Positions 524 to 37,385 of a stretch of 37,419 bases of DNA are shown here, one piece after another; the stretch's first letter is position 1; each line of letters begins with the position of its first letter. Below the pieces are notes generated by a model that saw only the letters and a program-made list of their open reading frames with translations, had not been told where the DNA came from and searched no databases. Origin of the DNA: a virus (Duplodnaviria > Caudoviricetes); the IMG/VR virus record IMGVR_UViG_3300015370_000006, positions 1 through 37,419 of that record; one strand, given 5' to 3'. A program made the position numbers and the translations under genes.

Positions 524-617
524 AAAAAAAACTCATAAGAATTAACCTACTTGCTCCAACCAATAGATAAGGTTGCGCGGATTGATTACCGCGTAGCAGG
601 TAAACTCTTATGAGTTC
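524..617 (-). ncRNA. Structured RNA: closing stem, two hairpins and U-tail (c4/CI-like architecture)
   Basis: Minus strand: GAACTCATAAGAGTT..ACCTGCT pairs with AGTAGGT..AATTCTTATGAGTTT; inner hairpins CGCGG/CCGCG and CAACC/GGTTG; G-U pairs work on this strand; upstream TGcTAATAT at 653-645. Confidence 0.6.
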
Positions 618-663
618 ATAATCTATTCTTTTGAGCATACATACATATTAGCACATCCTACGC

Positions 664-693
664 TTGACACAATAGTCTAACTGTGGATATAAT
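664..693 (+). promoter_or_regulatory. Sigma70-type promoter
   Basis: TTGACA-18bp-TATAAT, 7 nt before ATG 701. Confidence 0.75.
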
Positions 694-700
694 TAGGCAT

Positions 701-838
701 ATGGAAAACTTAGTTTATATATTCGCTTATATCCTCGCATTTTTATGCGTAACCGTCCCGATCTTCGCCGCGCTTTTGTTCTGGTACATCCTCGGCGCGA
801 ACATTTACCGTTGCTATATTAAAAAAGACGCTGTGTAG
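701..838 (+). CDS. 45-aa small membrane protein (not in ORF track)
   Basis: MENLVYIFAYILAFLCVTVPIFAALLFWYILGANIYRCYIKKDAV; has its own promoter and terminator. Confidence 0.7.
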   Translation: MENLVYIFAYILAFLCVTVPIFAALLFWYILGANIYRCYIKKDAV

Positions 839-852
839 CGTCCTTTTTTTTT
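821..852. terminator. Bidirectional intrinsic terminator
   Basis: AAAAAA-GACGCT-GTGT-AGCGTC-C-T run between convergent genes. Confidence 0.8.
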
Positions 853-3800
853 ATTTAAGCCATTGTATTTGGTCTAGCCTTTCAAGGTCTTTTACTACGG
901 CCTCATTTTTTAACGCCCCGGATTTCTTGATTTTTTCTACTTTATCTTGGGCTTCTTTGTCCCCGGCCTTTGCCTTATCTATGGTCGCTGATATTTCATA
1001 AGCGGCGTCACGCGCCAATTTCTCGGCTTTAATATCGCTGTAAATATCATCAAACATTGATTGCACCATGTCCGATTGTTCATCTATTGGCAAAGCATTA
1101 AAGGATTTTTTGCGCATTAGTTTTTTTAGAACCGTCAATTGGATTTCGCCAATCTCACCTTGAATATCTTTGCGCTGTTTTGATGTTAGTTCTAATTTCA
1201 TCCCATAAAGAGTTGTATTCTCGCTAAGTTGTGTCGGCGCAACCGGCACACCCTCATCATAAAATTCTACTAATTTTTGGGTAGTTTCTTTTTTATCAAT
1301 TGGCTTAGTGTTTATTGGTAGTAGTAGCTTATCAATTGCCCGGATATAAAATGGCCTTTCATCTTTAACGAGTTGGCCAAATCTATCAACGGCGGCCTCT
1401 GCCTTTGTTGAGGCAAAAGGGATTTTGCGCAAGAACCCATCTTTTAATGTTTTATAATCTCTTTTTGTTGGGTCAACAACTTGCGCCATGCGGCCAAAAA
1501 ACGTCGGCACGATACTTGTAGCAAGCTGTTTGGCATATCTATCAAGCGATCTGTCCGGGTCTTTCACGGCTTCAAGCGCGCTATTTAATCCGCTAACAAA
1601 TGATTGATCGCTAAATGACTTCATGCCGGAAGCTAAGCCTGCCCTTGCTTGTTTATACGTTCCCACGCCCTCATCTTTTGCACGGTGTATATCTGCGCCA
1701 ACACCTAACAATGCGCCAAAAATACCAATCCTTGATAGCTCGTACCAACGATTGCCAACCTTAATAGCATTAGGCAAACGCCCCTCCTGCTCCCAAACTA
1801 GCCTCTCCTTAGAGTCTGACGGATATGCGCCCGTCATAAGCCCTGCGGCCGCTAAGACTCCGCCGGCGGCGATTATGCTTGTACCTGTGATTGCTCGCCC
1901 CATCCCCTGCACAAATTGACGTTGGTTTTTATTCTTAATCCCGTTAGCTACTGTGGTTAAAAACCCTGCCGGTGAATATTCCAAAATAGTTGTAGCTACA
2001 CCGGCCGGGGTTCTTGTAAATGGCATTGCTGTTTCCGCACCAATTTCAACCGCTTTACCAAGTGCGTTAAAACCTTGCTTGTCCTGCATACGTTTTGCCC
2101 CGCGCCTAAGCCCGGACGCTAAATCCCCTATTGGTGTTTCTCTGTTAAATGTTGCATACTCCGCGTCATTGATTGCGTTCTGCAACATTTCATCCGTTGG
2201 ATTGTCATATATTCTTTTAACTTCTGCCTTATAATCAAGCCCTTTTAGTTTAGAGTTCTTTGCTCCGGCTTTGGCTTGATCGAAAAGTGAACGCTGTAAT
2301 GCGGCCTCTCTAAATACTTTATCCTCCGCGCCAAGTGTACGGTAAATGGTATCCGTATATTTTTGTGCAACTTTACCCATTGGGCTATCACCAAAATTTA
2401 CTTGCTTACGAATGTCATATTTTTTTAATTCCTCCAAAGTGATACCATTTTTTAGATAGTCTTTTGCGTGTCCAACTCCTTTACGCGCTCCTTTTAATGT
2501 CCCCTCTAGGTTAAATGACAACGTACGCTTGCCTGTGAATTTAGAAATAAGCGTGTCGAGTGCGCTCGCTGGCACATCCTTTACCATTTCTAAATTAGCC
2601 ATGCCAACATTACCAATAATATTGGCCATGTGGGTTGTAGGTGAAGTCAACAATCCAGCTTTCCAAATAGTAACCATCTTTTCTGTGAGTGTTGATTTTT
2701 GTAGCTTGGCAATTTCCATGAGTAAATCGAGCTGATTTTTTTCGTCGAGTGCCTTAGTTATAAGCTCAATTTCTGCTGGGCGTAGATCTCTACCCGCTAC
2801 ATCCTGCGCTTTCTTTAACCAAAACGCCGGGTCAAGTGTATCTTGTGCCATGAGTTTATACGCTTGGATTGCTCGGCCGGCTTCTGTTCCGCCTAACGTT
2901 ACCTTTTTAAGCATGGTACTTATCCTACCCTCGGCGGCCGCTACTGTTTCTAAATGCTTTGCTTTGTTGGCAATATCTGTTTGCGCTTTCTTTGTAAATT
3001 CAATAACCGTATTCGTTTCTTGTTTGATCTGGCTTCTTAATGCCAAAACTTCTGCGTCTGTAATACGATTTTTGTTTGCGCCTCTTAATAACTCGGCCGG
3101 ATCTAGGCCTAGCTCCTTTGCCATTTCCTTGACCTCATCATTTTTACGCACACTACGCGACATTAGGCCGGCTTTCTCTCGCTCTTTTTCAATGATTGCT
3201 AGTCGGTCTGCGTCCTTTGTTATCTTGTCCCCTCTAAATGTCTGTTTGACCTCCCCCTCCTTGACAGATAGAACAGATTGTGGTATGGTATCATTGTACG
3301 AGGGATTAACCTCACTAACATTTTTTCCTATGTCTGACTTAATTGTTTTCACGCCGGACTCTCCCGGTGCTACGCCGGTTTTTGTTGAGGTGTCTGATGA
3401 AGATATACGTTTTTCTGGCGCGCCCAACTCTGAAATGCCCCCCCTTTCGGATATTATGTCCTTTGGCCAAGTAGTTTCTGACGAGGAATTTTCTAAACGC
3501 TTAGCGGCGTCCGGTTTCAAAGACCCGCGCATATCTGCTACATCCAAGGCGTCTTGATAATATCTTCGGCTCGCTTCAACATCTTTCTTAAAAGCTGTTA
3601 TCTCTTTTTGGCTTATGCCTAGTTCTTTTGCTGACCCAAAACCGCCATTTTTCTTAAATGGTTTTTTGCCGGCCTGTTCTAGCTTCTCCAATAAAGACCT
3701 TTGATTTTCGTATAGCTCATGGCCAATGCCGGGTTTTAATCCGGCTTTTTCTAATTCATCCCAAGTCTTTTGGCCTATGACTGCTACTGCGTCGTCTTTC

Positions 3801-6800
3801 TTTTCTTTAACAAAAATCATTTCCGGGATATTTACTTGCATTTCTGCAATATGCCCGGTCTTTTTATCTATGAATTGTGTATTTATTCCGCGATAACCAA
3901 ACTCTGTCGGCGTCTCAAAATAATTCTTTTCGGGATTGTATTTAACTCCGGCCTCATTTTTAAGCAATGTCGGGATAGAGTCAATATCTGATAGCTTAGG
4001 CACAACAACCGTATTACGGGCAAGATCTTTAACACCTTTAACATCCTTAGCTTGTAAGGCTTTTTCAACGGCGCGTCCGGGGTCAAACTTTCCGCTATTG
4101 GGCTTAAATCCTTTAATTGGTGCGGTTTTTACTTTCGCCCCCGGTATTCTGTCCGCTACATTTTGCGCGGCCTTATCAACTTTGGGCTTTACTTCTTCCG
4201 CTACTCTGTAATGTTCCAGCATGTCATCCGTGAATTTTTGAGGGTCTATATCTCCATATAGTTTTTTATCTGCGGCGATCTGGCTTTCAATGGACGCTTG
4301 TAATTCTTTCTTATACAACTCCGGGTTCTTTGCAATGGTCATTTTTCTGACGTCTAGTGTCTGTTTATTCACTCCACGCAAAACAGAAATTGAGTCATCA
4401 CCGTTAGCAAGCGTTTGCGCAATTCTGTTATATCCATCTAGCACCTCGCCTTTTGAGGTAATAATGGGATTCATAGCAAACGCCTCGCCCTCGAATTCCC
4501 TTATCTCGCCGGATTTCAAATAAGCGTCTAAATCCGGGTCTGATTTTCTTAAATCATCAATCTTTACAGTTTCAATATTATAATCTTCCGCTTGTATTTG
4601 TTTCGCTAAATAATCATCTATACCCCCTTGATCGCTCCCTAAATCGCGGGCTTCTTTTTCAATTTGTTTTCCCGTGAAGTCTGCGCCGCTTTTTTGGCTA
4701 CTTGATTTTTGATATTTTGCTATAAATTCCTCCTCCATTTTAGCTTGCTCTGCGTTGATAGATTTTTGTTTAGCAACTAATCCCGGTTTCTCTTTGGCTT
4801 TGGCTGTTTTAATTTTATTATCCAAGTCCATTGACTGGCTTTCTAAAACGCCGTAACGCTCGGCATAATTATCCGCCCAATCACTCTCTGGTGATATTTT
4901 GCCTTTACTTGATAACGCCTCCTTTATTGTCTTTGGTTTTTCTTCAAGGGCTAATAATTTTTTAACAATATCAACCGGCTTATCTTTAGTAACTCGCACG
5001 CTTTTCAATACTTCATCTACCGCCTTGCCATCTTTTTTTAGTATCTCAAGTGCCTCGCGATATTCTTTGATACGCTTTTTTGACTCAACGCCGGATAGCG
5101 CATTAGTAAGTCTATTTTCAACCCTCTTATATCTATTTGCTACCGGGTTTTGCACAAACTTTTCTTGTACGTTTCCGAATAAATCAACCGTTGCTAGTCG
5201 CGCTTCCTCTGCATTTTTTGCCTTTGTTATTCTTTCAACCGCGTTTTGAGTAGCTTTTAATGACTGATCTGTTTCGGCCGCCGCAATTTTACCTATTCGA
5301 TCTGCTAATAAATCTTTGGCCGCTTTATCTTTCATCAATCCGGGATTAGCTTTTATAGCCTCGTTAAATTTTTCTAACGTGGATAGTTTGCGTTGTATAA
5401 AACCCTCTTGTACTGATTTGTATTTTGATAATTTCGGCAAAACATTATCCCACAATGCCGGGTCAAACTGATTAAACAAATCATTGATTGCTAAAATCTG
5501 CTTTGTTCTCTGTGGGTCTGCAACGATTGACATTATTTCCTTTTCATTTAGTACGCCCTGTCGTAAAAGTTCAACTATATTATGATCGTACGTTGTAACC
5601 TTACCTTTGATATTTGATTTTATAGAGTCTTTCGTTGCGGCTTTTAAGCTGTTGTATTCTGTAACATTAAAAAACTTGGGGTCTAAATCCTTAATGCCTG
5701 CCTGTTTTAACATCTCTAAACGGTTGTGGCCGCTAATAAGTATCGTGTCGCCGGCCTTAATTCCTTTTTCTGGTATGTCTTTTGTAAATTTGCCAAGTTG
5801 TATAGGATCTTTTTCGAGTAGCTTGGGGTTAAAACCATCCGCCAAATATTCTGTTACGCGCTTCGGTTCTGCTCCGCCTTTGTTGAGTAGCCCCCCGGAT
5901 AGTTCACCGGCACGGCTCATCTGAAATAAATCCGGGCGGGTTTTTACGTCGGATACTTTAGATATAACTTGCTTTGATTTTTTTATTTGGGTTGACGTTT
6001 TGAGATTTTTTGTATCAAAAATAACTGTATCTCGTCCTACCCTAACACCTCCAAAACCTTTGTCTTCCCAATATTTCCTCATAGCTACCGGGTCATTGAA
6101 TAGCTCCGGGTTTTCTTTATTTATGAGATTGTACCAATCATCATATCTATCAAAGTCTTTGATCTTTACGTTTTTATTAACATGCCCCTCTATAACATCT
6201 TTTTTATCCCAACTCTTTGCGTACATTTTTGCGTCGTCAACGCTATCTGCAAAATAAATTCCCTCTCCTAATAAATGTTTATTACTGCCAACTCCAACAT
6301 TTCTATAACTTTGTTCTCCTAACTTAAAACCCTCTTGCTCAATAACTGACGCCGCGTCTGAACCATGATACAAGCGTTTAGGTTTGGCCACATCTGTGAT
6401 AGCCCCCTGTCCCCTCTTTGCTTCGGTCATCTTAAAAGCCTCGCCGGCTTGATAATCTGCTGATGATACAGGGTTATGCGGTTTTGTTAGAGCTTCACGG
6501 TCAACGCCAAACTGCATACCGCCTTGCTCCGGCGCGGGCGCGGTATTAACTTTGTTGCCAAAAATATCCGCTTGGCTTGGGGCTTCGCCAATCTTTGCTT
6601 TTGCGTTATCAACTGAACGCTGAACGCTCGCTAGTCTTCCCTCCGATAACGGCTTGCCTAGTGAGTCTTTTTTTCTTGATAATATCCCCTCCCCCTCTGC
6701 AATACTGTTGCGTATTTCTTGTACCGCGTGAGGGTCTGTGATTATTTTAGTTGATTGTTCTGTGGTATTTTTACCCATCTTTTCCATCTGCTCTTTATAA

Positions 6801-7867
6801 AATTGTTGTGCCGTTTCCTCACTCAACTTAACGTCTTTTTTGAGGGTAACTTGATAAATATTGTTGCCGGCTTCTTGTACGTTATCAATGAAATTCTGTT
6901 GCTTCAACCAGCTTGAATATCCCGGATTAGAGCGTTCCGGTTTTATAAAAATTGTGCGTCCTTTCCCTTTCCATAAATCCTCGACCGGTTCAACAATCTT
7001 AAATGTATCCCCTATTTGGTCTTTCAAAATACGTTCCGCACCATCTTGGATAAAACGCTCGCCAACTTCTTTGCCGTATTTCTCCGCTAACTCCTTACCC
7101 ATTTTTTCTAGGGCTTCTTTGCCTAGCTTTTCGGCCGCACCACCAACGCCAAAGTCAAGATCCATTGCTTTCATTCCACCAAAAGCAAAAGCGGCCGGAA
7201 GTGCTACCGGCAATTTTTGCATGGTTGGCAAAAACCCTTTTTGTTCTGCAAGCTCTGGGTTCGCAAATTCAATAGCTTTATTTGTATAATCTCTATTAAA
7301 ATCTCCGGCCTCTTTACTCATTGATTTGACTTCTTCATCACCAAATAAAAACCGTGAAAAATTACCTTTAGGCTGAAATGATTTACCTTGCTGTCCTGCC
7401 GCGTCCATCCCTAAGCCCATTGCCGTGCGTGTCGCGGCTTGCCCTACATCCTTTAATAACCCTCCCTTAAAAAGATAATCCCCAAACCGTGATTGATTTG
7501 TCATCCCTAAACCTCCGGGCGAATACTCATTAAATCGCTGTTGTTTCTCTACGCCCTCGCTAATAACATTTTTAGCTGTTGTAACTTCACTTGTTTTAAC
7601 CGGGTTAGGCGTTACCTTGATTTCCTCACCGCGCTTGATCGCTTCTACTGTGTCGCGTCTTGGATATGATTTGACCTCTGTAACATTCGACAATCCCACA
7701 CCAACGCCAAACTCCATAGCCCCCGCGCGCTTCTTTGCCTCGGCCTCTTTAATCCTTTTGCTGTTATCGTATAAATCTATCCCAAATCCCGCTAAGGGAT
7801 TAAAAGATTTTACGGTTGATTTTGCCGCGTTTACAACCGTACCTTTCAATGAGTCCCAAAAAGCCAT
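851..7867 (-). CDS. Large polyvalent (probable ejection/internal virion) protein: ART-like, 2x ParB-like, RelA/SpoT-like nucleotidyltransferase, C-terminal LPD38-like
   Basis: LYHGS..GEGIYFA..DTVIFD (ART); LISGHNRL and VLDGYNRI (ParB/Srx); KDLAR..GYRGIN..AEMQV..GHELYE (RelA/SpoT); last gene of the virion module. Confidence 0.85.
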   Translation of the reverse strand: MAFWDSLKGTVVNAAKSTVKSFNPLAGFGIDLYDNSKRIKEAEAKKRAGAMEFGVGVGLSNVTEVKSYPRRDTVEAIKRGEEIKVTPNPVKTSEVTTAKNVISEGVEKQQRFNEYSPGGLGMTNQSRFGDYLFKGGLLKDVGQAATRTAMGLGMDAAGQQGKSFQPKGNFSRFLFGDEEVKSMSKEAGDFNRDYTNKAIEFANPELAEQKGFLPTMQKLPVALPAAFAFGGMKAMDLDFGVGGAAEKLGKEALEKMGKELAEKYGKEVGERFIQDGAERILKDQIGDTFKIVEPVEDLWKGKGRTIFIKPERSNPGYSSWLKQQNFIDNVQEAGNNIYQVTLKKDVKLSEETAQQFYKEQMEKMGKNTTEQSTKIITDPHAVQEIRNSIAEGEGILSRKKDSLGKPLSEGRLASVQRSVDNAKAKIGEAPSQADIFGNKVNTAPAPEQGGMQFGVDREALTKPHNPVSSADYQAGEAFKMTEAKRGQGAITDVAKPKRLYHGSDAASVIEQEGFKLGEQSYRNVGVGSNKHLLGEGIYFADSVDDAKMYAKSWDKKDVIEGHVNKNVKIKDFDRYDDWYNLINKENPELFNDPVAMRKYWEDKGFGGVRVGRDTVIFDTKNLKTSTQIKKSKQVISKVSDVKTRPDLFQMSRAGELSGGLLNKGGAEPKRVTEYLADGFNPKLLEKDPIQLGKFTKDIPEKGIKAGDTILISGHNRLEMLKQAGIKDLDPKFFNVTEYNSLKAATKDSIKSNIKGKVTTYDHNIVELLRQGVLNEKEIMSIVADPQRTKQILAINDLFNQFDPALWDNVLPKLSKYKSVQEGFIQRKLSTLEKFNEAIKANPGLMKDKAAKDLLADRIGKIAAAETDQSLKATQNAVERITKAKNAEEARLATVDLFGNVQEKFVQNPVANRYKRVENRLTNALSGVESKKRIKEYREALEILKKDGKAVDEVLKSVRVTKDKPVDIVKKLLALEEKPKTIKEALSSKGKISPESDWADNYAERYGVLESQSMDLDNKIKTAKAKEKPGLVAKQKSINAEQAKMEEEFIAKYQKSSSQKSGADFTGKQIEKEARDLGSDQGGIDDYLAKQIQAEDYNIETVKIDDLRKSDPDLDAYLKSGEIREFEGEAFAMNPIITSKGEVLDGYNRIAQTLANGDDSISVLRGVNKQTLDVRKMTIAKNPELYKKELQASIESQIAADKKLYGDIDPQKFTDDMLEHYRVAEEVKPKVDKAAQNVADRIPGAKVKTAPIKGFKPNSGKFDPGRAVEKALQAKDVKGVKDLARNTVVVPKLSDIDSIPTLLKNEAGVKYNPEKNYFETPTEFGYRGINTQFIDKKTGHIAEMQVNIPEMIFVKEKKDDAVAVIGQKTWDELEKAGLKPGIGHELYENQRSLLEKLEQAGKKPFKKNGGFGSAKELGISQKEITAFKKDVEASRRYYQDALDVADMRGSLKPDAAKRLENSSSETTWPKDIISERGGISELGAPEKRISSSDTSTKTGVAPGESGVKTIKSDIGKNVSEVNPSYNDTIPQSVLSVKEGEVKQTFRGDKITKDADRLAIIEKEREKAGLMSRSVRKNDEVKEMAKELGLDPAELLRGANKNRITDAEVLALRSQIKQETNTVIEFTKKAQTDIANKAKHLETVAAAEGRISTMLKKVTLGGTEAGRAIQAYKLMAQDTLDPAFWLKKAQDVAGRDLRPAEIELITKALDEKNQLDLLMEIAKLQKSTLTEKMVTIWKAGLLTSPTTHMANIIGNVGMANLEMVKDVPASALDTLISKFTGKRTLSFNLEGTLKGARKGVGHAKDYLKNGITLEELKKYDIRKQVNFGDSPMGKVAQKYTDTIYRTLGAEDKVFREAALQRSLFDQAKAGAKNSKLKGLDYKAEVKRIYDNPTDEMLQNAINDAEYATFNRETPIGDLASGLRRGAKRMQDKQGFNALGKAVEIGAETAMPFTRTPAGVATTILEYSPAGFLTTVANGIKNKNQRQFVQGMGRAITGTSIIAAGGVLAAAGLMTGAYPSDSKERLVWEQEGRLPNAIKVGNRWYELSRIGIFGALLGVGADIHRAKDEGVGTYKQARAGLASGMKSFSDQSFVSGLNSALEAVKDPDRSLDRYAKQLATSIVPTFFGRMAQVVDPTKRDYKTLKDGFLRKIPFASTKAEAAVDRFGQLVKDERPFYIRAIDKLLLPINTKPIDKKETTQKLVEFYDEGVPVAPTQLSENTTLYGMKLELTSKQRKDIQGEIGEIQLTVLKKLMRKKSFNALPIDEQSDMVQSMFDDIYSDIKAEKLARDAAYEISATIDKAKAGDKEAQDKVEKIKKSGALKNEAVVKDLERLDQIQWLK
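3261..3315 (+). promoter_or_regulatory. Antisense internal promoter and leader, homologous to the early promoter at 35513
   Basis: TTGACA-17bp-TATGGT with extended TG; shares TAGAACAGAT and a 19/21-identical leader with 35513-35567. Confidence 0.8.
3330..3557 (+). CDS. 75-aa acidic protein nested antisense in the giant gene; candidate antitoxin/immunity
   Basis: MSDLIVFTPDSPG...GQVVSDEEFSKRLAASGFKDPRISATSKAS; dedicated promoter; TCACTAA leader motif; 12 D/E residues, unlike the rest of the shadow frame. Confidence 0.7.
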   Translation: MSDLIVFTPDSPGATPVFVEVSDEDIRFSGAPNSEMPPLSDIMSFGQVVSDEEFSKRLAASGFKDPRISATSKAS

Positions 7868-7874
7868 ATATTTT

Positions 7875-9932
7875 TTATTCTTCGGGTTCGTTAAGTATGT
7901 CTTGCCATGTTGACGCTCCGCTACTCGATGTTGTTGATTTCTTATTTACCGCATAATCCGGGTTATTCGGGTTGCGGTATCCTTTCATTTTTGTATCAAA
8001 CGATGTGGCACTATAACCGGCCTGCGTCCACATATTGCGGTATTTCTGATAATCGTCTGGCGACAAAAAACCATCTTCCCCAAGATCCCCGCTAGTTCCA
8101 ATTCTAGTAGTAACGGCCTCCGCAACGTCCGCCTCCTTTAGTCCGGGCTTCAATGAGGTTGGCATGTTGTCATTACCAGTAACTTTAGTAACCGGCATGT
8201 TGTCATTACTTCCGGCTGATTTTACAACCGGCATGTTGCTCTTTGTCGCGCCTCCGCCTCTTACATAGCTTGTAATATTCTTGATATAAGCCGGCACGGT
8301 CGTCCCGTACACGTCGGCCGAATTATTGCCGGCGGCCGGGCGTCCGCTAAACCACATTGAGGCTGTATCCTCAACCGTTCCATATTTCTGATAGTATTCT
8401 GCCAACTTCTTACGGGCTATGATTTCTTGCGCCTCTGGGTTCTTCAAAAATTCCTGTGCTGTCATTGATTGCCCTAGTACCGCCTTACTCCATGACGGAA
8501 TGTTATTACCCATAATTTGGTACTTGCCATATGCTCGGTCACCATTTGCGGAGGCCTGCGAAACCGCCCCGTAATTAAAGCCGGACTCCATGTTGGCAAT
8601 TCCATCCACTAACCTGTCAAACTCATCAACGCCGGAGGTATAGGGGCTATCAGAGGACGTTGTGCCTCCATCGTAACTATCGCCCCACGGGTTCTCAACT
8701 CCTGCGCCAAATTTCCCGGCTTTAGGTTCAAAAGTTCCAGTATTTTTATCAAATACACCGGCCTGCGTGTTGTCGTTTCCACTTATGAATTGATAGTCGC
8801 CTTTTGTTGAACCGCCAATTTTAGTCGCGCTCAATCCATCCGGGGTAACGCTCCACAATTCACCGTCAACAATCTTAACATCATTACCTACTGCGTCGGC
8901 CGGTAATTCCTGTGTGTAATATTTCATTTCCCCAGTCTTTGGATCTATGCCATAGGCCATTAAGTAGTTGCCTTTAATATCCGTTTTCCAATCAATCTTT
9001 TCTTCTGCCGGTTTATACATGTTTAATTTAGCCGCCAATTCTAACTCACTCATGTTTGTTGACTCTAGTAATTGTTGCAACCTCTCCGGGTCATCGGCCT
9101 TAATATCGTCAATGCTATATCCGGCCGTGCCTAAAGTTTCAATAGTTGCGCTCGCCGCCTCTTGTGCTTTTGCAATATAATTAGCGTAACCATCCGCGTC
9201 ATTTGAGGCCTGTGCCTTTTCGGCCTGTATTCTGTTATAAGATACCTCGTCCATTTTAGTGTAGATAGCAGATATTTGTTGTCCGCGTTCAACCTCAATA
9301 GCTTTTAGTGCGTTTGCGTTTGCATTTTCTTGATTTTTCGTATTTGCGTCGCCAAAATCTGACCCAATAAGACCGGATCTCGCATTGACCGCGCGGGTCT
9401 TTCCTAAATTACCCTCATTGACAACCCTACGTTCACCAATCATTGAATCATAAGCACCATTGATAGCGTCAATCCGGGCTTGATTTTCTGACCGCACTTG
9501 TTCTCTGATTGCGTTTTCATCTACTCCCGCATTTTGCTGGGCTTTCCATTCCTCCAAAGACATTGTACTGCCATCCGATCTTGTGCCTCCGGCTAGATTT
9601 CCGCTTGCGTCATAGCGCGGGGCTGTGGTCGCTGTCGGTTTGCTTCCATCTTTCCAAGTCTTTGCGCTCTCATCGTAATAACGCGAAGTCTGCGCCGGGG
9701 CTGGCGCAATAGGTGTTGGTTTTGTTACGGCCTCCGGCGTGTATGAGTCAACATTTTTATTAGTAGTAATAGCTTGGTTTTTGATTGCTGTTGGGGCTAT
9801 CATCCCATTTGCTTGTGTACTCCCTACTGTGCCGCCCGTAATAAGTTTATTCGGGTCTGCGACACTCCGGGCGGCTACGTTTGACAGGTTTTCTGACTCA
9901 ACCTGTTTTATCATGTCTTGGACTGTTTTCAT
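7875..9932 (-). CDS. Probable ejection protein with lysozyme/transglycosylase-like domain
   Basis: IANMESGFNY..AYGKYQIM motif; coiled-coil N-half; located just upstream of the giant gene. Confidence 0.75.
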   Translation of the reverse strand: MKTVQDMIKQVESENLSNVAARSVADPNKLITGGTVGSTQANGMIAPTAIKNQAITTNKNVDSYTPEAVTKPTPIAPAPAQTSRYYDESAKTWKDGSKPTATTAPRYDASGNLAGGTRSDGSTMSLEEWKAQQNAGVDENAIREQVRSENQARIDAINGAYDSMIGERRVVNEGNLGKTRAVNARSGLIGSDFGDANTKNQENANANALKAIEVERGQQISAIYTKMDEVSYNRIQAEKAQASNDADGYANYIAKAQEAASATIETLGTAGYSIDDIKADDPERLQQLLESTNMSELELAAKLNMYKPAEEKIDWKTDIKGNYLMAYGIDPKTGEMKYYTQELPADAVGNDVKIVDGELWSVTPDGLSATKIGGSTKGDYQFISGNDNTQAGVFDKNTGTFEPKAGKFGAGVENPWGDSYDGGTTSSDSPYTSGVDEFDRLVDGIANMESGFNYGAVSQASANGDRAYGKYQIMGNNIPSWSKAVLGQSMTAQEFLKNPEAQEIIARKKLAEYYQKYGTVEDTASMWFSGRPAAGNNSADVYGTTVPAYIKNITSYVRGGGATKSNMPVVKSAGSNDNMPVTKVTGNDNMPTSLKPGLKEADVAEAVTTRIGTSGDLGEDGFLSPDDYQKYRNMWTQAGYSATSFDTKMKGYRNPNNPDYAVNKKSTTSSSGASTWQDILNEPEE

Positions 9933-9954
9933 AATAAGTTTTTAAGAATTTTTT

Positions 9955-11589
9955 TTATTCGCTATAAGCCGTCCAGTAAACGGTCGCTGTTGTTATGTAG
10001 TCACTTGCTGATAATGTAAAGCCTGTTTGGGTTTTGCTTGTCACCGTCCCCGCGTTTTCAACTTGTGAGGCGTTAGCGTCGTAAACATACCAAGCCTTAG
10101 CTGTTACTCCACCATGAACTTCTGTACCTAACCCCTCTATATAAGTACATCTATTCGAGTCATCTCCAATTGACATGCCCCCCTGCGCTTGCGTTGTTCC
10201 GGCTGTTACTTCAATCCTTGTTGGATAAAAGCCTGTTGTCTGGGCATATGTTGTAGATGATGTAACAGATTGTGAACCGAGCCTTATAAACTTAGGTTCA
10301 ATAACTCGGAATGATGTTGTCGATAATGCCTGTGCTACTTTCGCTGGGCGTGTTGCGTGAGGGGTTACTGAAATAGAACCAGTTGTTCCTGATATATAAT
10401 AATATGATCCGGCTGTAAGGCTTGACGCTCCCGTTACAACTGCGCCGGGCTTTGCAAATCTTACCGTTTCATCTGCACCAGTAGCCGCGTCAAGAGCAAA
10501 GCCAATAAAAGAATATGTACTCTCGTCACCGTCCGCGTCCGTTTTATAAAGTTTTCCATCGGAGGCTTTAACATAAAGTGAATCCCAATAAGCAAATGCT
10601 TCCCCGGATGTAGACGTACTTTCGTTTTGAGATACCATCGTTTGAGATTGACTATAACGTGTTGGGTCATCGCTACTATCCGCGTCCGTACTGATTTGGA
10701 ATTGATCTGCGGTAGTTCCTGCTGTTAGGTCTGAAATGGTTATTGCTGTTGATGATGAGATATGTAACCCTCCATTTGTAAAATTAAGGCCTCCACCAGT
10801 CAATAAATCTATATAAATCTTTGAGTCTGTTATGCCTATGCCTTTTGTTGTTGACGCTGTAAGGCCACCGGCCGCACCCGAATTGATAGCCACCGTTGAA
10901 ACGCCATCGTCTGAATACTGCCATTCATTTGCTGACTCGTTGTATTGTAAAAAAGGCAAGTTAGCGTCCGCATTATCTGCCATTAGTTTTTTGTTCTGTG
11001 ACGTTTCCCCATTACCAAACATGAACGTAGAGCTTGCGGACTCTGTGCCGTTTAGTATCCGGCTTAGAATTGCTAACTGCGGATAGTTCGTCATCTTAAC
11101 CGTAGCACCGCGCCTATGCTCAAATTTTAGGGCTGTAATAGAGGTTTCGCCGTCTTGCACGTCAATGCCTCTCGTTACTACCGTACAAGCCGTAGATGAA
11201 CAGGTAGCGGTCACAAATTCCTCACTTGTTGAACCCTCATCAATTACAAAACCATAAAATCCGGATAATGCCCGGTCTTGTTTGTCCGTACCTCTAACAA
11301 GGGTAAATGTCTCCGCCGTGCTTGACATGCGGGACGCTAGAGAATCTGAATACAATGCAATAACTGTTGGAATAGTAGCACCTACTAGATCGCCGGTTTC
11401 TAAAGTCTGTCCGGCATAAATTAAATCCGGGTTATCAATCCCGTTAAACTGTGCCAACGCTTCAACGGTTGTGCCGTTTCGTTGTGCGATTTTTGATAGT
11501 GTGTCGCCGGGCTGTATTAAAACTTGCGCGGCGTAGGTTGGGAGGGCTACGAAAAGCGCGGCCAACAAAATGTAAAATAGTTTTTTCAT
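9955..11589 (-). CDS. Signal peptide + LysM + tail fibre/spike-like protein
   Basis: MKKLFYILLAALFVALPTYAA; IQPGDTLSKIAQRNGTTVEALAQFNGIDNPDLIYAGQTL is a LysM; Thr/Ser-rich beta body. Confidence 0.8.
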   Translation of the reverse strand: MKKLFYILLAALFVALPTYAAQVLIQPGDTLSKIAQRNGTTVEALAQFNGIDNPDLIYAGQTLETGDLVGATIPTVIALYSDSLASRMSSTAETFTLVRGTDKQDRALSGFYGFVIDEGSTSEEFVTATCSSTACTVVTRGIDVQDGETSITALKFEHRRGATVKMTNYPQLAILSRILNGTESASSTFMFGNGETSQNKKLMADNADANLPFLQYNESANEWQYSDDGVSTVAINSGAAGGLTASTTKGIGITDSKIYIDLLTGGGLNFTNGGLHISSSTAITISDLTAGTTADQFQISTDADSSDDPTRYSQSQTMVSQNESTSTSGEAFAYWDSLYVKASDGKLYKTDADGDESTYSFIGFALDAATGADETVRFAKPGAVVTGASSLTAGSYYYISGTTGSISVTPHATRPAKVAQALSTTSFRVIEPKFIRLGSQSVTSSTTYAQTTGFYPTRIEVTAGTTQAQGGMSIGDDSNRCTYIEGLGTEVHGGVTAKAWYVYDANASQVENAGTVTSKTQTGFTLSASDYITTATVYWTAYSE

Positions 11590-16333: not shown

Positions 16334-18451
16334 TTAGTCAATTTGGGTTAGGAATATCTCGTCATAATCTGTATATCCAGCCGCAGATGTTCTGAGCTTT
16401 AGGTTTGATTGTCCGCTTGCCACAAAAGTTTCATCAATATCCTGCCATTCTGTTGAGCTAGTACCTTGCCAAACAGTTGTTATATAGTTGATTATTGCCG
16501 GAGGAAGAGTTCCATCGCCCCTAGCTTTTCCAGTCAATCTATAAGTTTTTCCTACAACGAATGGTGTTTGAAAAGCGTAAGCGTTTGCCCCATTATATGT
16601 AACTCTTAAAAACTGATTGCCCCTATAAGGATCAGTTGTTTCTTTTGTTAATAGTGCATTGTTTGCACCCCAAGCATCTGTACCGCCCGTAATTTCTACA
16701 ACTGATACGTCATCAAACTCTGCATATGTCGTCCCTGCTGTACTGCCTTTTGTCATTCTGACGTAAGTAGCACTTGATTCAAATACTTCTTCAAAGTATT
16801 GCCAATCGGTTGAACTTGTACCAATCCAAATACTCTCAACTGAACCTTGTCCAATCGCTGGGTAAGCTGTGCCGTCGCCTTTAGCCCAACCTGAAACTAA
16901 ATATGTTCCCGTGTTTTCTATTGCACTTGGCTCTCTAGCCGCACCCCAACTGTCCGTCTTCTCAACCCTTAAAACTTGCGTTCCACTTCCACCAGTTCTA
17001 GCCCCTGCCTCTTTTGATAGAGTAGCACTATTGTCTGCCCCAAAAGAAGCAACACCTACCGCCTCCATATCACCATCTGCAAGTTCTTCACTCCCATACG
17101 TCTGCGGATCTTCCATATCGCCGTCTGCCAAAATCTGTTTCGTTCCGTCTTTTAGCTCGCCTTTATATTCGGTAATTTGAATATCGTCAAATTCTGTTGA
17201 GTATCCTGTGGTTGTGCCGGGGTATAAAGCAAAGCTAGTTCCTGTAAAATCTGCTACAAAATCAATAGGTTGCCATTCGGTTGAGGCTGTTCCTGACCAG
17301 TGATAACCTTGAATAGCGCAAGCCTCTGTGGTGATAGCAATTGTTGGTGTATTAGTTCCATCACCCTTTGCCCACCCTGTAACTCTGTATGTTCCTGCTG
17401 TGATTGTTTGATAAACGCAACCGCTTGAACCTGTCCTAGTGATTTTTATGTTTTGGTTGCCATCATATGGATTTGTTGAGTCTTTAACTACTAAAGAATT
17501 AAATGCGTTCCAATCATCTGTACCGCCCGTAATTTCTACAATTGATACGTCATCAAAATATACTGCCGAACTGCTTACTGCACTAACATTAAATAAATAA
17601 AATGCCGTACCAACAGACAAAGAGCTTACTTCAAAATACTGCCAATCGGTTGAGGCTGTACTGACGGCAACTCTACCCGTTGCTTTTTGTATGTATGCAA
17701 TGCCACTTGTACCATCGCCCCTAGCCCAGCCAGTAATTTTATATTTATGACCGTCAACATAACTACCCGATGATTTGTAGCCCCCTGCATAAGCTGTGCC
17801 CGTGCTCTCAATCTTTAAGCTTCGTGTTCCAGAATAAAACACCCCTGTATCTTTCGTTATTATTGCACCATTAACGGAATTATAACCAACCGCAATATCT
17901 TCCATATCACCATCTACTAAAATCTCCGCCCCGTAAGTCTGCGGATCTTCCATGTCGCCATCTGCAAGTAATTGCTTTTCTGCATTGAGTGTTTCGCCAA
18001 CGTATTCGGTGATGAAGATGTCATCTATACTACCATTAAAATCTGTACTTGGAATTATATAAATATAAGTGTTACCAGAACAAACCACATTTTCAGAAAA
18101 CACTCCGTTTGTTGTTCTCGTTATACCAACACCTGTTGAACCTATGTACATTTTAACAGAACCAGAAGTTTGATTACTAACTTTATATGTTATTTTGAAA
18201 GTTTCTCCTAATGTTAATTTAGGTGATGAGTCATGTGTTGAGGCTGTACTACCTGTTGAATGAACCAACTTTCCATCAGTAATATTCCAATTTGAACCTA
18301 AAGCCCATCCATTCGTACCATCCTCAAAATCACCATTTACAACCAACTGCTTTTCTCCCTGAACCATCGCTACTCCACCAAGCGCAACCGCAAAATTACC
18401 CAATGACAATATGGTTGTAAGTGCTAAAAATGCAATGAGTAGTTTTTTCAT
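16334..18451 (-). CDS. Signal peptide + five CBM4/9-like carbohydrate-binding repeats (receptor-binding candidate)
   Basis: Repeated NGDFE/DGDME..Y.vtGWAKGDG..STDWQ..FDDV motifs. Confidence 0.75.
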   Translation of the reverse strand: MKKLLIAFLALTTILSLGNFAVALGGVAMVQGEKQLVVNGDFEDGTNGWALGSNWNITDGKLVHSTGSTASTHDSSPKLTLGETFKITYKVSNQTSGSVKMYIGSTGVGITRTTNGVFSENVVCSGNTYIYIIPSTDFNGSIDDIFITEYVGETLNAEKQLLADGDMEDPQTYGAEILVDGDMEDIAVGYNSVNGAIITKDTGVFYSGTRSLKIESTGTAYAGGYKSSGSYVDGHKYKITGWARGDGTSGIAYIQKATGRVAVSTASTDWQYFEVSSLSVGTAFYLFNVSAVSSSAVYFDDVSIVEITGGTDDWNAFNSLVVKDSTNPYDGNQNIKITRTGSSGCVYQTITAGTYRVTGWAKGDGTNTPTIAITTEACAIQGYHWSGTASTEWQPIDFVADFTGTSFALYPGTTTGYSTEFDDIQITEYKGELKDGTKQILADGDMEDPQTYGSEELADGDMEAVGVASFGADNSATLSKEAGARTGGSGTQVLRVEKTDSWGAAREPSAIENTGTYLVSGWAKGDGTAYPAIGQGSVESIWIGTSSTDWQYFEEVFESSATYVRMTKGSTAGTTYAEFDDVSVVEITGGTDAWGANNALLTKETTDPYRGNQFLRVTYNGANAYAFQTPFVVGKTYRLTGKARGDGTLPPAIINYITTVWQGTSSTEWQDIDETFVASGQSNLKLRTSAAGYTDYDEIFLTQID

Positions 18452-35465: not shown

Positions 35466-35512
35466 GGGTTGCTGTGGATGTTTTTTTGTTAGTTGGTTGA
35501 CACAATAGGGAC

Positions 35513-35541
35513 TTGACAGAGTAGAACAGATGGGGTATAGT
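35513..35541 (+). promoter_or_regulatory. Rightward early promoter
   Basis: TTGACA-17bp-TATAGT. Confidence 0.85.
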
Positions 35542-35583
35542 GTATATGTAAGAGGGAATAACCTCACAAAACAAACACGCCTT

Positions 35584-36288
35584 ATGAACACATACGAAGC
35601 CAAGCAAGAAGCAAGACGGAAACGCTACGAAACACTAGCGGCCAAAAATGCCTCACATGCAGATAGCCTGCACAAATCCGGGATGGACGCACTAAGCCAA
35701 ATCCCATTCGGTCAACCAATTTTGGTCGGCCATCATAGCGAGCGCGGTGATAGAGCCTATCGCGGTCGAGCCTGCGCTAAAATTGATAAATCATTCGAAG
35801 CCCAAAACAAAGCGGCCTACTACGAAGAAAAAGCGGCAAGCGTCGGCAAGGCTGGCATTTCAAGCGATGACCCGGACGCAATAATTAAACTAAAAGAAAA
35901 ATTGGCCAAGCTAGAGGGCGAACGTGAGAAGTTCAAAGAGTTCAATAAGACGGCGCGCAAGAACAAAACAGATCAGCTCCCGGCCTACGTTCTAACAAAC
36001 CTCGGCGCAAACATTCGCACGGTCAAACAGCGAATAGCTCACCTTGAAAAGATGGAGGCAACGGAGGCTCGCCCAGATATAGTGTGTGATGGTTTCATCA
36101 TCCGGGAAAATAAAGAAGAAAACCGTTTGCAATTCATCTTTGAGGGAATTCCAGCCCCGGAGGTTAGAAAGGAATTAAAAAGCCACGGGTTCAGATGGTC
36201 GCCAACTAACACGGCATGGCAAACATTCCTCACAAATCGCGGCCGCTATCAAGCCGAACAAGTTAAATCAAATATCATTAACCAATAA
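35584..36288 (+). CDS. DUF3560-like protein
   Basis: IPFGQPILVGHHSE..DR; ISSDDPDAI; RLQFIFEGIP..LKSHGFRWSP..AWQ; start 35584 lies downstream of the promoter. Confidence 0.88.
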   Translation: MNTYEAKQEARRKRYETLAAKNASHADSLHKSGMDALSQIPFGQPILVGHHSERGDRAYRGRACAKIDKSFEAQNKAAYYEEKAASVGKAGISSDDPDAIIKLKEKLAKLEGEREKFKEFNKTARKNKTDQLPAYVLTNLGANIRTVKQRIAHLEKMEATEARPDIVCDGFIIRENKEENRLQFIFEGIPAPEVRKELKSHGFRWSPTNTAWQTFLTNRGRYQAEQVKSNIINQ

Positions 36289-36886: not shown

Positions 36887-37057
36887 ATGAACATCAAATA
36901 CTACACACGCTACATCTACGGGACGCCTAAAAATTACGTCCTAGATGTAAAAGAGGCGAAAATCTTAACAGATATTACCGGCACAACCACGCTAACAGAT
37001 CGCCACATCAAAGCCCTAAAAAAAATAGGCCTAACATTTGAACGGGTACTAGATTGA
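36887..37057 (+). CDS. 56-aa hypothetical early protein (not in ORF track)
   Basis: MNIKYYTRYIYGTPKNYV..LKKIGLTFERVLD; TCACTAA leader. Confidence 0.7.
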   Translation: MNIKYYTRYIYGTPKNYVLDVKEAKILTDITGTTTLTDRHIKALKKIGLTFERVLD

Positions 37058-37091: not shown

Positions 37092-37385
37092 ATGAAAAAT
37101 GAAATGCTAACATACGCGGAGGCCGGGATACGTTTAGGGGTTGTTAAATCGGTCGTCCACTTCTACATCAAACGGGGCTACATTAAGCGCAAAAAGACAG
37201 GTATTCCAGCTAGTGAAGTCACCAAATTTATAAAGAACCCCCCCACTAAAAAGCCTACTACCCAAGAATTAAAAGACTTAATCAAAGAGCGTTACAACGC
37301 CGGCGGCATTACAATGCGCAAGCTAGGCGATGAATACGGGATGAGTGAAAGCCTAGTAAGTAAGATAATTAAAGGCACTAGATAA
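37092..37385 (+). CDS. Double HTH DNA-binding protein
   Basis: LTYAEAGIRLGV..V..YIKRG and TMRKLGDEYGMSESLVSKII. Confidence 0.8.
   Translation: MKNEMLTYAEAGIRLGVVKSVVHFYIKRGYIKRKKTGIPASEVTKFIKNPPTKKPTTQELKDLIKERYNAGGITMRKLGDEYGMSESLVSKIIKGTR

Follow-up and report, generated by a model that had tools for sequence, protein, structure and literature searches.

A predicted Tis1-like immunity gene encoded antisense to the linker behind a Tas1-like toxin domain in a giant phage protein

Results

A synthetase domain in a giant phage protein and the antisense frame behind it

The DNA analysed here, IMG/VR record IMGVR_UViG_3300015370_000006 (37,419 nucleotides; hereafter the window), is a phage genome of 37.4 kb that is complete and has a terminal repeat of 123 nucleotides (nt); in it, Pfam and PHROG searches identify an SU10-like portal and adaptor as well as capsid and terminase genes. 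Its minus strand carries a giant gene for a polyvalent protein of 2338 residues, and our subject is a 75-codon open reading frame (ORF) that lies inside this gene on the opposite strand, directly behind the codons of a RelA/SpoT-like synthetase domain, and that probably encodes an inhibitor of that domain (Table 1). The C-terminus of the giant protein matches phrog_6651, an internal virion protein (E 1e-18), and to judge from its sequence the protein is likely to be internal to the virion and ejected. It contains matches to ART-PolyVal (residues 495-586) and RelA_SpoT (residues 1274-1355), both under Pfam cut-offs, and about 900 residues follow the synthetase domain.

The synthetase domain aligns with the toxin domain of Tas1 (6ox6_A; phmmer, E 3e-14). 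Its motif residues are intact (K1252, K1269, D1281, R1284, G1324-Y1325, E1342, Q1344 and N1346), and the motifs K, D..R.T, GY.G.N and E.Q.N can all be seen, with GxN at syn3 in the form GYRGIN. By sequence, the domain is related to Tas1, a (p)ppApp synthetase toxin, and its activity is predicted on that ground.

A first-pass annotation of this DNA had proposed that an antitoxin gene is hidden antisense beside the domain, and the landmarks it named are present: TCACTAA at 3312, an ATG at 3330 and a product of 75 residues with 12 aspartates or glutamates, closed by a TGA at 3555-3557. Nowhere else does the antisense frame of the giant gene reach at least 12 acidic residues per 75 codons (mean 2.8). 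The annotation had also described the giant protein as turning into a serine-, threonine- and glycine-rich (S/T/G-rich) linker over the ORF; the 75-residue stretch from residue 1461 is in fact both the most serine-rich and the most S/T/G-rich of the entire protein. The open frame exceeds 75 codons, running to 235 residues from an ATG at 2850, and 3330 is the start implied by the promoter described below. That the small ORF abuts the C-terminal end of the domain, ending at its last conserved tyrosine, is true but automatic and without evidential weight, because the conserved Tyr-Tyr of the domain forces a stop in that frame.

The 75-residue protein has no match in Pfam, PHROG or Atlas, and no significant profile match to the Tis1/IapK family PF24154 in Pfam. 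Close relatives of the phage were not seen: the promoter pattern had 0 matches in viral contigs, and the domain-plus-linker region matched only itself. One apparent relative, L001, was rejected as it shares a 23-residue match only, in an unrelated context.

Table 1. Features of the embedded locus and of its sister promoter (positions in the window).
Feature	Position	Strand	Evidence or remark
75-codon antisense gene, predicted Tis1-fold immunity protein	3330..3557	+	Promoter, composition, predicted fold, family evidence
Weak terminator-like hairpin and T run inside the antisense ORF	3364..3378	+	Probably chance
Sigma-70-type promoter, TTGACA-17-TATGGT, extended TG	3261..3289	+	Consensus match; copy of 35513-35541
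Leader copy: GAGG-N6-CCTC palindrome 3300-3313, TCACTAA 3312-3318, 11 nt before ATG	3295..3318	+	Likeness to 35547-35567
Intergenic promoter and leader of small plus-strand gene cluster	35513..35567	+	Sister copy of 3261-3315; heads DUF3560 gene 35584-36288
Giant polyvalent protein gene, 2338 residues	851..7867	-	ORF; downstream of portal, capsid and tail genes
Tas1/Apk-type alarmone synthetase domain, residues ~1220-1437	3557..4210	-	phmmer to 6ox6_A and invariant alignment columns
S/T/G-rich inter-domain linker, residues ~1438-1538	3255..3556	-	Composition; sense-strand shadow of antisense gene and promoter

The embedded promoter and leader copy an intergenic unit

Ahead of the antisense ORF, within the codons of the giant gene, stands a promoter with its -35 box at 3261-3266, a 17-nt spacer and its -10 box at 3284-3289, preceded by TG. 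It is the second-best sigma-70-like site among the 19 found in 600-10000. The leader behind it (3295-3315) is identical to that at 35547-35567 in 19 of 21 positions and begins 5 nt after the -10 box in both copies; boxes, spacer, leader distance and leader identity are all as the annotation had described them. The promoter-leader copy is confirmed as real and beyond chance: the local alignment of 3261-3315 to 35513-35568 scores 70, with the next best site in the genome at 33, against a maximum of 30 when the codon order of the giant gene is shuffled 300 times and of 58 in 300 synonymous redraws. The claim that the embedded promoter copies an early one holds for the copying, while the word "early" for the 35513 promoter comes from its position only.

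TCACTAA occurs at nine other places in the genome, five of them with an ATG 10-13 nt downstream, and the leader palindrome occurs four times. The match of promoter and leader to the small plus-strand cluster suggests shared control, perhaps through the palindrome and a helix-turn-helix (HTH) protein encoded at 37092-37385 (plus strand; HTH_3, E 1e-5), which has its own promoter at 37054; by its sequence this protein is a candidate regulator acting via the shared palindrome. Gene starts of the phage mostly lack a Shine-Dalgarno (SD) sequence, which accompanies 4 of 45 starts. As a separate observation, T stands at -1 in 38 of 43 starts, and TCACTAA is often found 10-13 nt upstream.

Where the domain ends a protein, a Tis1-family gene usually follows

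Searches for relatives of the domain gave 456 representatives, and among the best 150 of these nearly all carry the domain at the C-terminus. We took 240 loci (the best 80 of 188, the best 80 of 88 and the best 80 of 217). A family of proteins of about 72 residues follows the domain; its profile finds Tis1 (6ox6_B) with E 4e-27, and a fused member matches Pfam Tis1_ImmP with E 4e-38. A gene of this family adjoins the domain in 132 of 146 non-redundant loci, on the same strand in 121, fused in five and on the opposite strand in six. These six face the toxin end (four strong matches, two at about 9 bits). In the remaining 14 loci no Tis1-family match lies nearby; among them are truncated loci, diverged candidates and the record of the window itself. 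On this sequence evidence, an immunity gene usually follows where the domain ends the protein.

Some arrangements deserve mention in their own right. The opposite-strand Tis1-family genes (L122, L123, L137, L153, L159 and L162) converge on C-terminal toxin genes and are easily missed by same-strand neighbourhood searches. The toxin domain is fused in frame to a Tis1-like partner in L107, L129, L139, L152, L199 and P0115, and tandem fragments of toxin end plus immunity occur in L140, L152 and L154.

Mid-protein domains share the embedded antisense frame

A motif scan of viral contigs returned 27 loci with the domain in mid-protein; four were dropped as non-homologous or truncated (L258, L263, L269 and L274), leaving 23, and the near-duplicates L273 and L277 are left out of counts, leaving 21. 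A linker rich in serine, threonine, glycine and proline lies behind the domain in 23 of 23, and linkers of the same kind occur in P0069 and P0158, which are known from protein linkers alone. As the first-pass annotation had anticipated, an antisense ORF downstream of the domain is conserved: in all 23 loci the antisense frame that shares third codon positions, the one used in the window, is open for at least 78 codons from the stop at the domain end. The chance of an open stretch of that length is 0.015-0.32 per locus. The zero stops in 1,696 antisense codons arise partly by construction, the ORFs having been delimited as stop-free, and are not used as evidence.

The embedded products are 59-99 residues long and fall into two subfamilies (11 and 8 loci) and the singletons L255, L271 and the window, with little similarity between these groups. 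Upstream of the chosen start, a TAnnnT hexamer stands at a distance of exactly 25 nt in 17 of 21 loci and of 23 or 28 nt in three more, and no other offset reached more than 2. The hexamer played no part in the choice of starts, with the reservation that those of L251 (GTG) and L261 (TTG) were set by family alignment. Of the 21 homologous starts, 20 have an SD-like site, compared with 37 of the 684 remaining antisense ATGs; this comparison is partly circular, as starts were chosen with SD in view.

The promoter is less uniform. Homologous loci keep the -10 box with mostly poor -35 boxes, and the linker motif "IPQ....VK/N", which the annotation had proposed to look for in homologues, is not general; the pattern [STIN][IMVT]x6V[NK] was rejected as a marker, having matched only the window and one stray among 151 proteins. 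Nor is the embedded promoter generally matched by a copy at another place in the genome: no such copy rose above shuffles in seven of eight homologous genomes, leaving L272 as the one marginal case (34 against 26-28, with six shuffles per genome). A 25-nt near-copy of the embedded promoter spacer of L272 lies elsewhere in that genome, with a match in L284, and perhaps belongs to another embedded unit.

In a tree of the domains, that of the window falls among C-terminal relatives (support 0.94), and the two embedded subfamilies are its sister group (0.97). L271 and P0069 are placed elsewhere, and convergent cases lie in four places; the tree thus suggests that the embedded layout arose repeatedly. 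None of the 12 embedded-layout records, nine of which have a completeness of 90% or more, contains a canonical Tis1 gene, and both positive controls do. Two of the homologous records are proviruses. For one embedded subfamily, 46 database relatives are called as proteins. In P0159, P0195, P0201 and P0203, relatives of an embedded subfamily are duplicated in tandem or joined to other segments, which suggests, on sequence grounds, that some of them are ordinary genes.

The antisense frame is under purifying selection in homologues

Selection was assessed from third-position transversions in nine independent pairs drawn from the two embedded subfamilies. Sites silent in the sense frame but changing the antisense product carry transversions in 5 of 81 cases, compared with 42 of 109 at doubly silent sites (p 8e-8). 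The toxin domain, read in the same frame as a control, shows no such gap (35 of 124 against 54 of 203, p 0.67). The comparison of both frames called for by the first-pass annotation thus came out in favour of the antisense gene, whose frame is under purifying selection in homologues.

Predicted folds point to Tis1

A structural model of the window protein (predicted local distance difference test, pLDDT, 73; other models 54-65) shows three strands, a helix, a strand and a helix. In a search of 48,161 Protein Data Bank (PDB) chains, Tis1 ranked first (Z 4.3, root-mean-square deviation (rmsd) 3.1, 53 residues aligned). A model of one embedded subfamily, built from 49 sequences, reached pLDDT 95.7, and Tis1 ranked second of the 48,161 (Z 5.0, rmsd 3.6, 57 of 68 residues aligned, 4% identity). 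Neither model alignment included a canonical Tis1 sequence. Individually these scores are unremarkable; that the expected protein comes to the top for two separately built models does count, and a Tis1-like fold is predicted for the window protein. Profile comparisons of embedded subfamilies with Tis1 gave P 0.0034, 0.16 and 0.023, and the matches all centre on a C-terminal G-x-x-hydrophobic-S/T-x-E-E-aromatic motif first spotted by eye.

As an aside, residues 1-78 of the chain 2ra8_A match both models (Z 4.2 and 3.8); we take this segment to be a WGR-type domain, perhaps part of a wider fold family of Tis1.

Other features of the genome

The ART-PolyVal-like domain of the same giant protein (6110-6385, minus strand) has behind it neither a consensus plus-strand promoter nor an acidic antisense ORF, so the embedded layout does not extend to every domain of this protein. 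Next to the end of the giant gene, and convergent on it, a plus-strand unit at 664-842 comprises a perfect-consensus promoter (12/12), a 45-residue hydrophobic ORF (701-838) without a Pfam match, and a terminator; its product is a candidate exclusion or immunity membrane protein. The -35 context of this promoter, TTGACACAATAG, occurs again at 35497. Ahead of the unit lies an intergenic inverted repeat of 22 nt (86%), with arms at 530-551 and 595-616, 43 nt apart. A tail-like gene at 16334-18451 (minus strand) contains several internal repeats.

Discussion

The promoter copy, the composition of the ORF and the family evidence together indicate that the 75-codon frame is very probably a real gene. 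We further think it likely that its product is a Tis1-like inhibitor of the Tas1-like domain encoded in the same gene on the opposite strand, because the usual downstream partner of such a domain is Tis1. The original proposal, a toxin domain with an antisense immunity cassette in the middle of a protein, is thus supported by the ORFs of homologues, by selection, by kinship of the toxin family and by predicted folds.

Several observations nonetheless weigh against this interpretation, and most concern the window's own copy. Its frame stayed open in 500 of 500 synonymous redraws of the linker, bearing out the caution in the first-pass annotation that the frame is naturally stop-poor; the openness is fully explained by the linker amino acids. 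The start context at 3330 is mediocre and T-rich, ranking seventh among 62 plus-strand ATGs in the giant gene with a score of -1.9, at the low end of true starts, and the weak hairpin with its T run falls within the ORF. The early-promoter copy is peculiar to the window's phage. The selection test was made without the window, L251, L255 and L271, the window having no close enough relative, and the linker shows constraint in the sense frame as well (11 of 57, p 0.008); as this is weaker than the strong antisense depletion, the linker appears to be shaped mainly by the antisense protein. Moreover, the mid-protein loci lie mostly in two sister clades of the tree, so that their counts are not independent.

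Kinship with Tis1 is the other weak side. Against our own Tis1-family profiles the window protein scores 2.6 bits, which at least 15 of 5,000 shuffles surpass, and 4.1 bits with a second profile (E 0.16); hhalign gives P 0.011 and a probability of 3.9%. Profile comparison finds no significant similarity to either embedded subfamily, and the family evidence therefore reaches the window protein by position and frame, not by sequence. Its structural model is moderate and built on an alignment of uncertain homology; Foldseek places Tis1 second by E-value, with E 1.2 and a template-modelling (TM) score of 0.39, and the Z of 4.3 is tied with 4.2 for the unrelated 2ra8_A. For the subfamily model, the unrelated 2jlp_A (Z 5.5) is likewise tied with Tis1, and Foldseek returned nothing significant and did not list Tis1. 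Fold matches at Z 4.3-5.0 fall within the range that the search tool calls common.

Could the antisense gene be real and translated, and yet have another job, for instance as a small nucleic-acid-binding or regulatory protein that leaves the adjoining domain alone? The weak sequence likeness to Tis1, the tied folds and the diversity of the embedded proteins, which form at least two subfamilies plus singletons, would all fit such a role. We nevertheless regard it as unlikely, given that the same place is held by Tis1 in most C-terminal loci, that three of the four blind fold searches put Tis1 in first or second place, and that the genomes with the embedded gene are without canonical Tis1.

Less probable again is that the active product is RNA. 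A long antisense transcript across the toxin domain might damp the mRNA of the giant gene by pairing or polymerase collision, with the ORF incidental; the promoter is directed straight at the toxin domain, and the compositional openness of the frame and its weak start context would need no further explanation. Selection on antisense amino acids speaks against this, as do the SD-like sites of homologous starts, and a linker under such a regime would not need a folded antisense product of the kind modelled with high confidence for the subfamily. An RNA effect could, however, be additional to that of the protein.

There is also little to recommend the idea of a decaying relic, an immunity gene that was once real and is now open only through linker composition. 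The window's protein is a singleton with weak likeness to all relatives, and the selection test covered its homologues, which would suit decay; on the other hand, the near-consensus promoter still matches its intergenic copy, and the motif residues of the toxin are intact. In a variant contig (depth 4.1) the ORF carries six changes and no stop: by a reading of the codons by hand, five alter neither protein, and the sixth replaces Ile by Leu in the antisense product and Met by Lys in the sense product; this near absence of non-silent change is equally explained by sense-frame selection. Least probable of all is a short non-coding RNA gene of some 85 nt that would stop at the hairpin (3364-3385), since, even though hairpin and T run lie about 70 nt past the predicted transcript start, the fold is no better than shuffles (z -0.43), terminator-like sites number 11 against 12.2 expected, and a comparable hairpin lies inside the gene in 1 of 21 homologues, with none called for the window by that test; without a significant fold or a conserved terminator, we rejected a promoter-hairpin-terminator unit and take the hairpin inside the ORF to be probably chance.

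How does a Tis1-like inhibitor gene embedded in this manner compare with known systems? The nearest, reported in PMC10083569 and PMC11782079, is the Tas1-Tis1 (Apk1) pair of Pseudomonas aeruginosa PA14 (PDB 6OX6), with a homologous toxin domain and a partner of about 70 residues, of similar predicted fold, directly behind it. As these papers describe it, Tas1 is the C-terminal domain of a type VI effector and tis1 is a separate gene, whereas the window has a mid-protein phage domain whose partner lies wholly inside the toxin ORF, on the other strand and under its own promoter, with marginal sequence likeness to Tis1. The MuF-Apk2/IapK (BcTis1)/Aph1 system of temperate phages, according to PMC12226406 and PMC10083569, likewise combines a (p)ppApp synthetase associated with the phage virion and a small inhibitor cognate to it. 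It shares with the window the GxN at syn3, a signature described in PMC12226406, and its three-gene layout was seen in phage PHB04. The window's domain differs from Apk2 in having no MuF, in not being C-terminal and in lacking a same-strand immunity gene; at syn2 and syn4 it has the Tas1 forms RNT and QVN in place of the RYT and YH of Apk2. A Pfam scan of 52 proteins, of which the window encodes 48, showed no HD hydrolase. Membership of the Apk2 group was accordingly rejected, there being no MuF match, some 900 residues behind the domain and no same-strand iapK. RelA/SpoT domains are listed in phage polyvalent proteins by Iyer et al (2017; PMC5512222), and the window's giant multi-domain protein, with RelA/SpoT and ART-PolyVal domains, resembles these proteins, which are thought to enter with the DNA. 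The main text of that paper contains none of the words "antisense", "opposite", "linker" or "promoter" and names no immunity gene for these domains.

Nested genes as such are familiar. In lambda, Rz1 lies wholly inside Rz, both genes being under selection, and the two share a strand and a late transcript. The gene described here differs in being antisense, in having its own promoter within the codons of its host gene and in likely encoding an inhibitor of the enclosing protein. Our searches of the open-licence literature brought up no description of an immunity gene that lies antisense within the gene of its own toxin. Within the same literature, the kind of toxin-immunity pair is known and its architecture unreported.

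What would such an arrangement achieve? We envisage an immunity protein encoded antisense in the linker codons behind a toxin domain, binding and blocking that domain. Host sigma-70 polymerase would transcribe the antisense gene independently of the late operon, and the inhibitor would be in stock before the giant protein is synthesized, and again soon after virion copies enter a new cell, provided that the giant protein is packaged and injected. Until inhibited, the domain would make (p)ppApp and so drain ATP. The small protein may occlude the acceptor-nucleotide site, as Tis1 does in Tas1; both Tis1 and IapK are described as binding inhibitors that occlude this site and are largely cognate-specific (PMC12226406, PMC10083569, PMC11782079). 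The main gain would be that the ATP of the producing cell is protected and injected copies are shut off, and lysogen immunity may be an added role, two homologous records being proviruses. As to origin, a Tis1 gene may first have been flipped to a convergent position behind a C-terminal toxin, the layout found in six loci; the toxin frame could then have run through the flipped gene in the stop-poor frame with shared third positions, yielding a cassette of toxin and immunity able to move, in frame, from one domain junction to another.

If the interpretation as an embedded immunity gene is true, it would explain how toxic domains in the middle of proteins, where a same-strand immunity gene cannot follow, are tolerated, timed and reshuffled. 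The reality of embedded antisense genes in prokaryotes is debated, and this would be a rare natural, fully embedded case in which the selection signal is clean and the function can be tested. Since standard annotation misses embedded genes once the giant ORF has been called, immunity genes may be under-counted in phage genomes, and S/T/G/P-rich linkers behind toxin domains offer a search signature.

In conclusion, a broader view can be put forward tentatively, at slightly less than even likelihood: phage polyvalent proteins would be built from self-immunizing cassettes, in which the seemingly featureless linkers behind toxic domains are reversed immunity genes, derived on several occasions from convergent pairs of toxin and immunity genes and each with a promoter for host polymerase among the codons of the toxin gene, forming a hidden, early-expressed antisense layer that times and ends the action of injected toxins.

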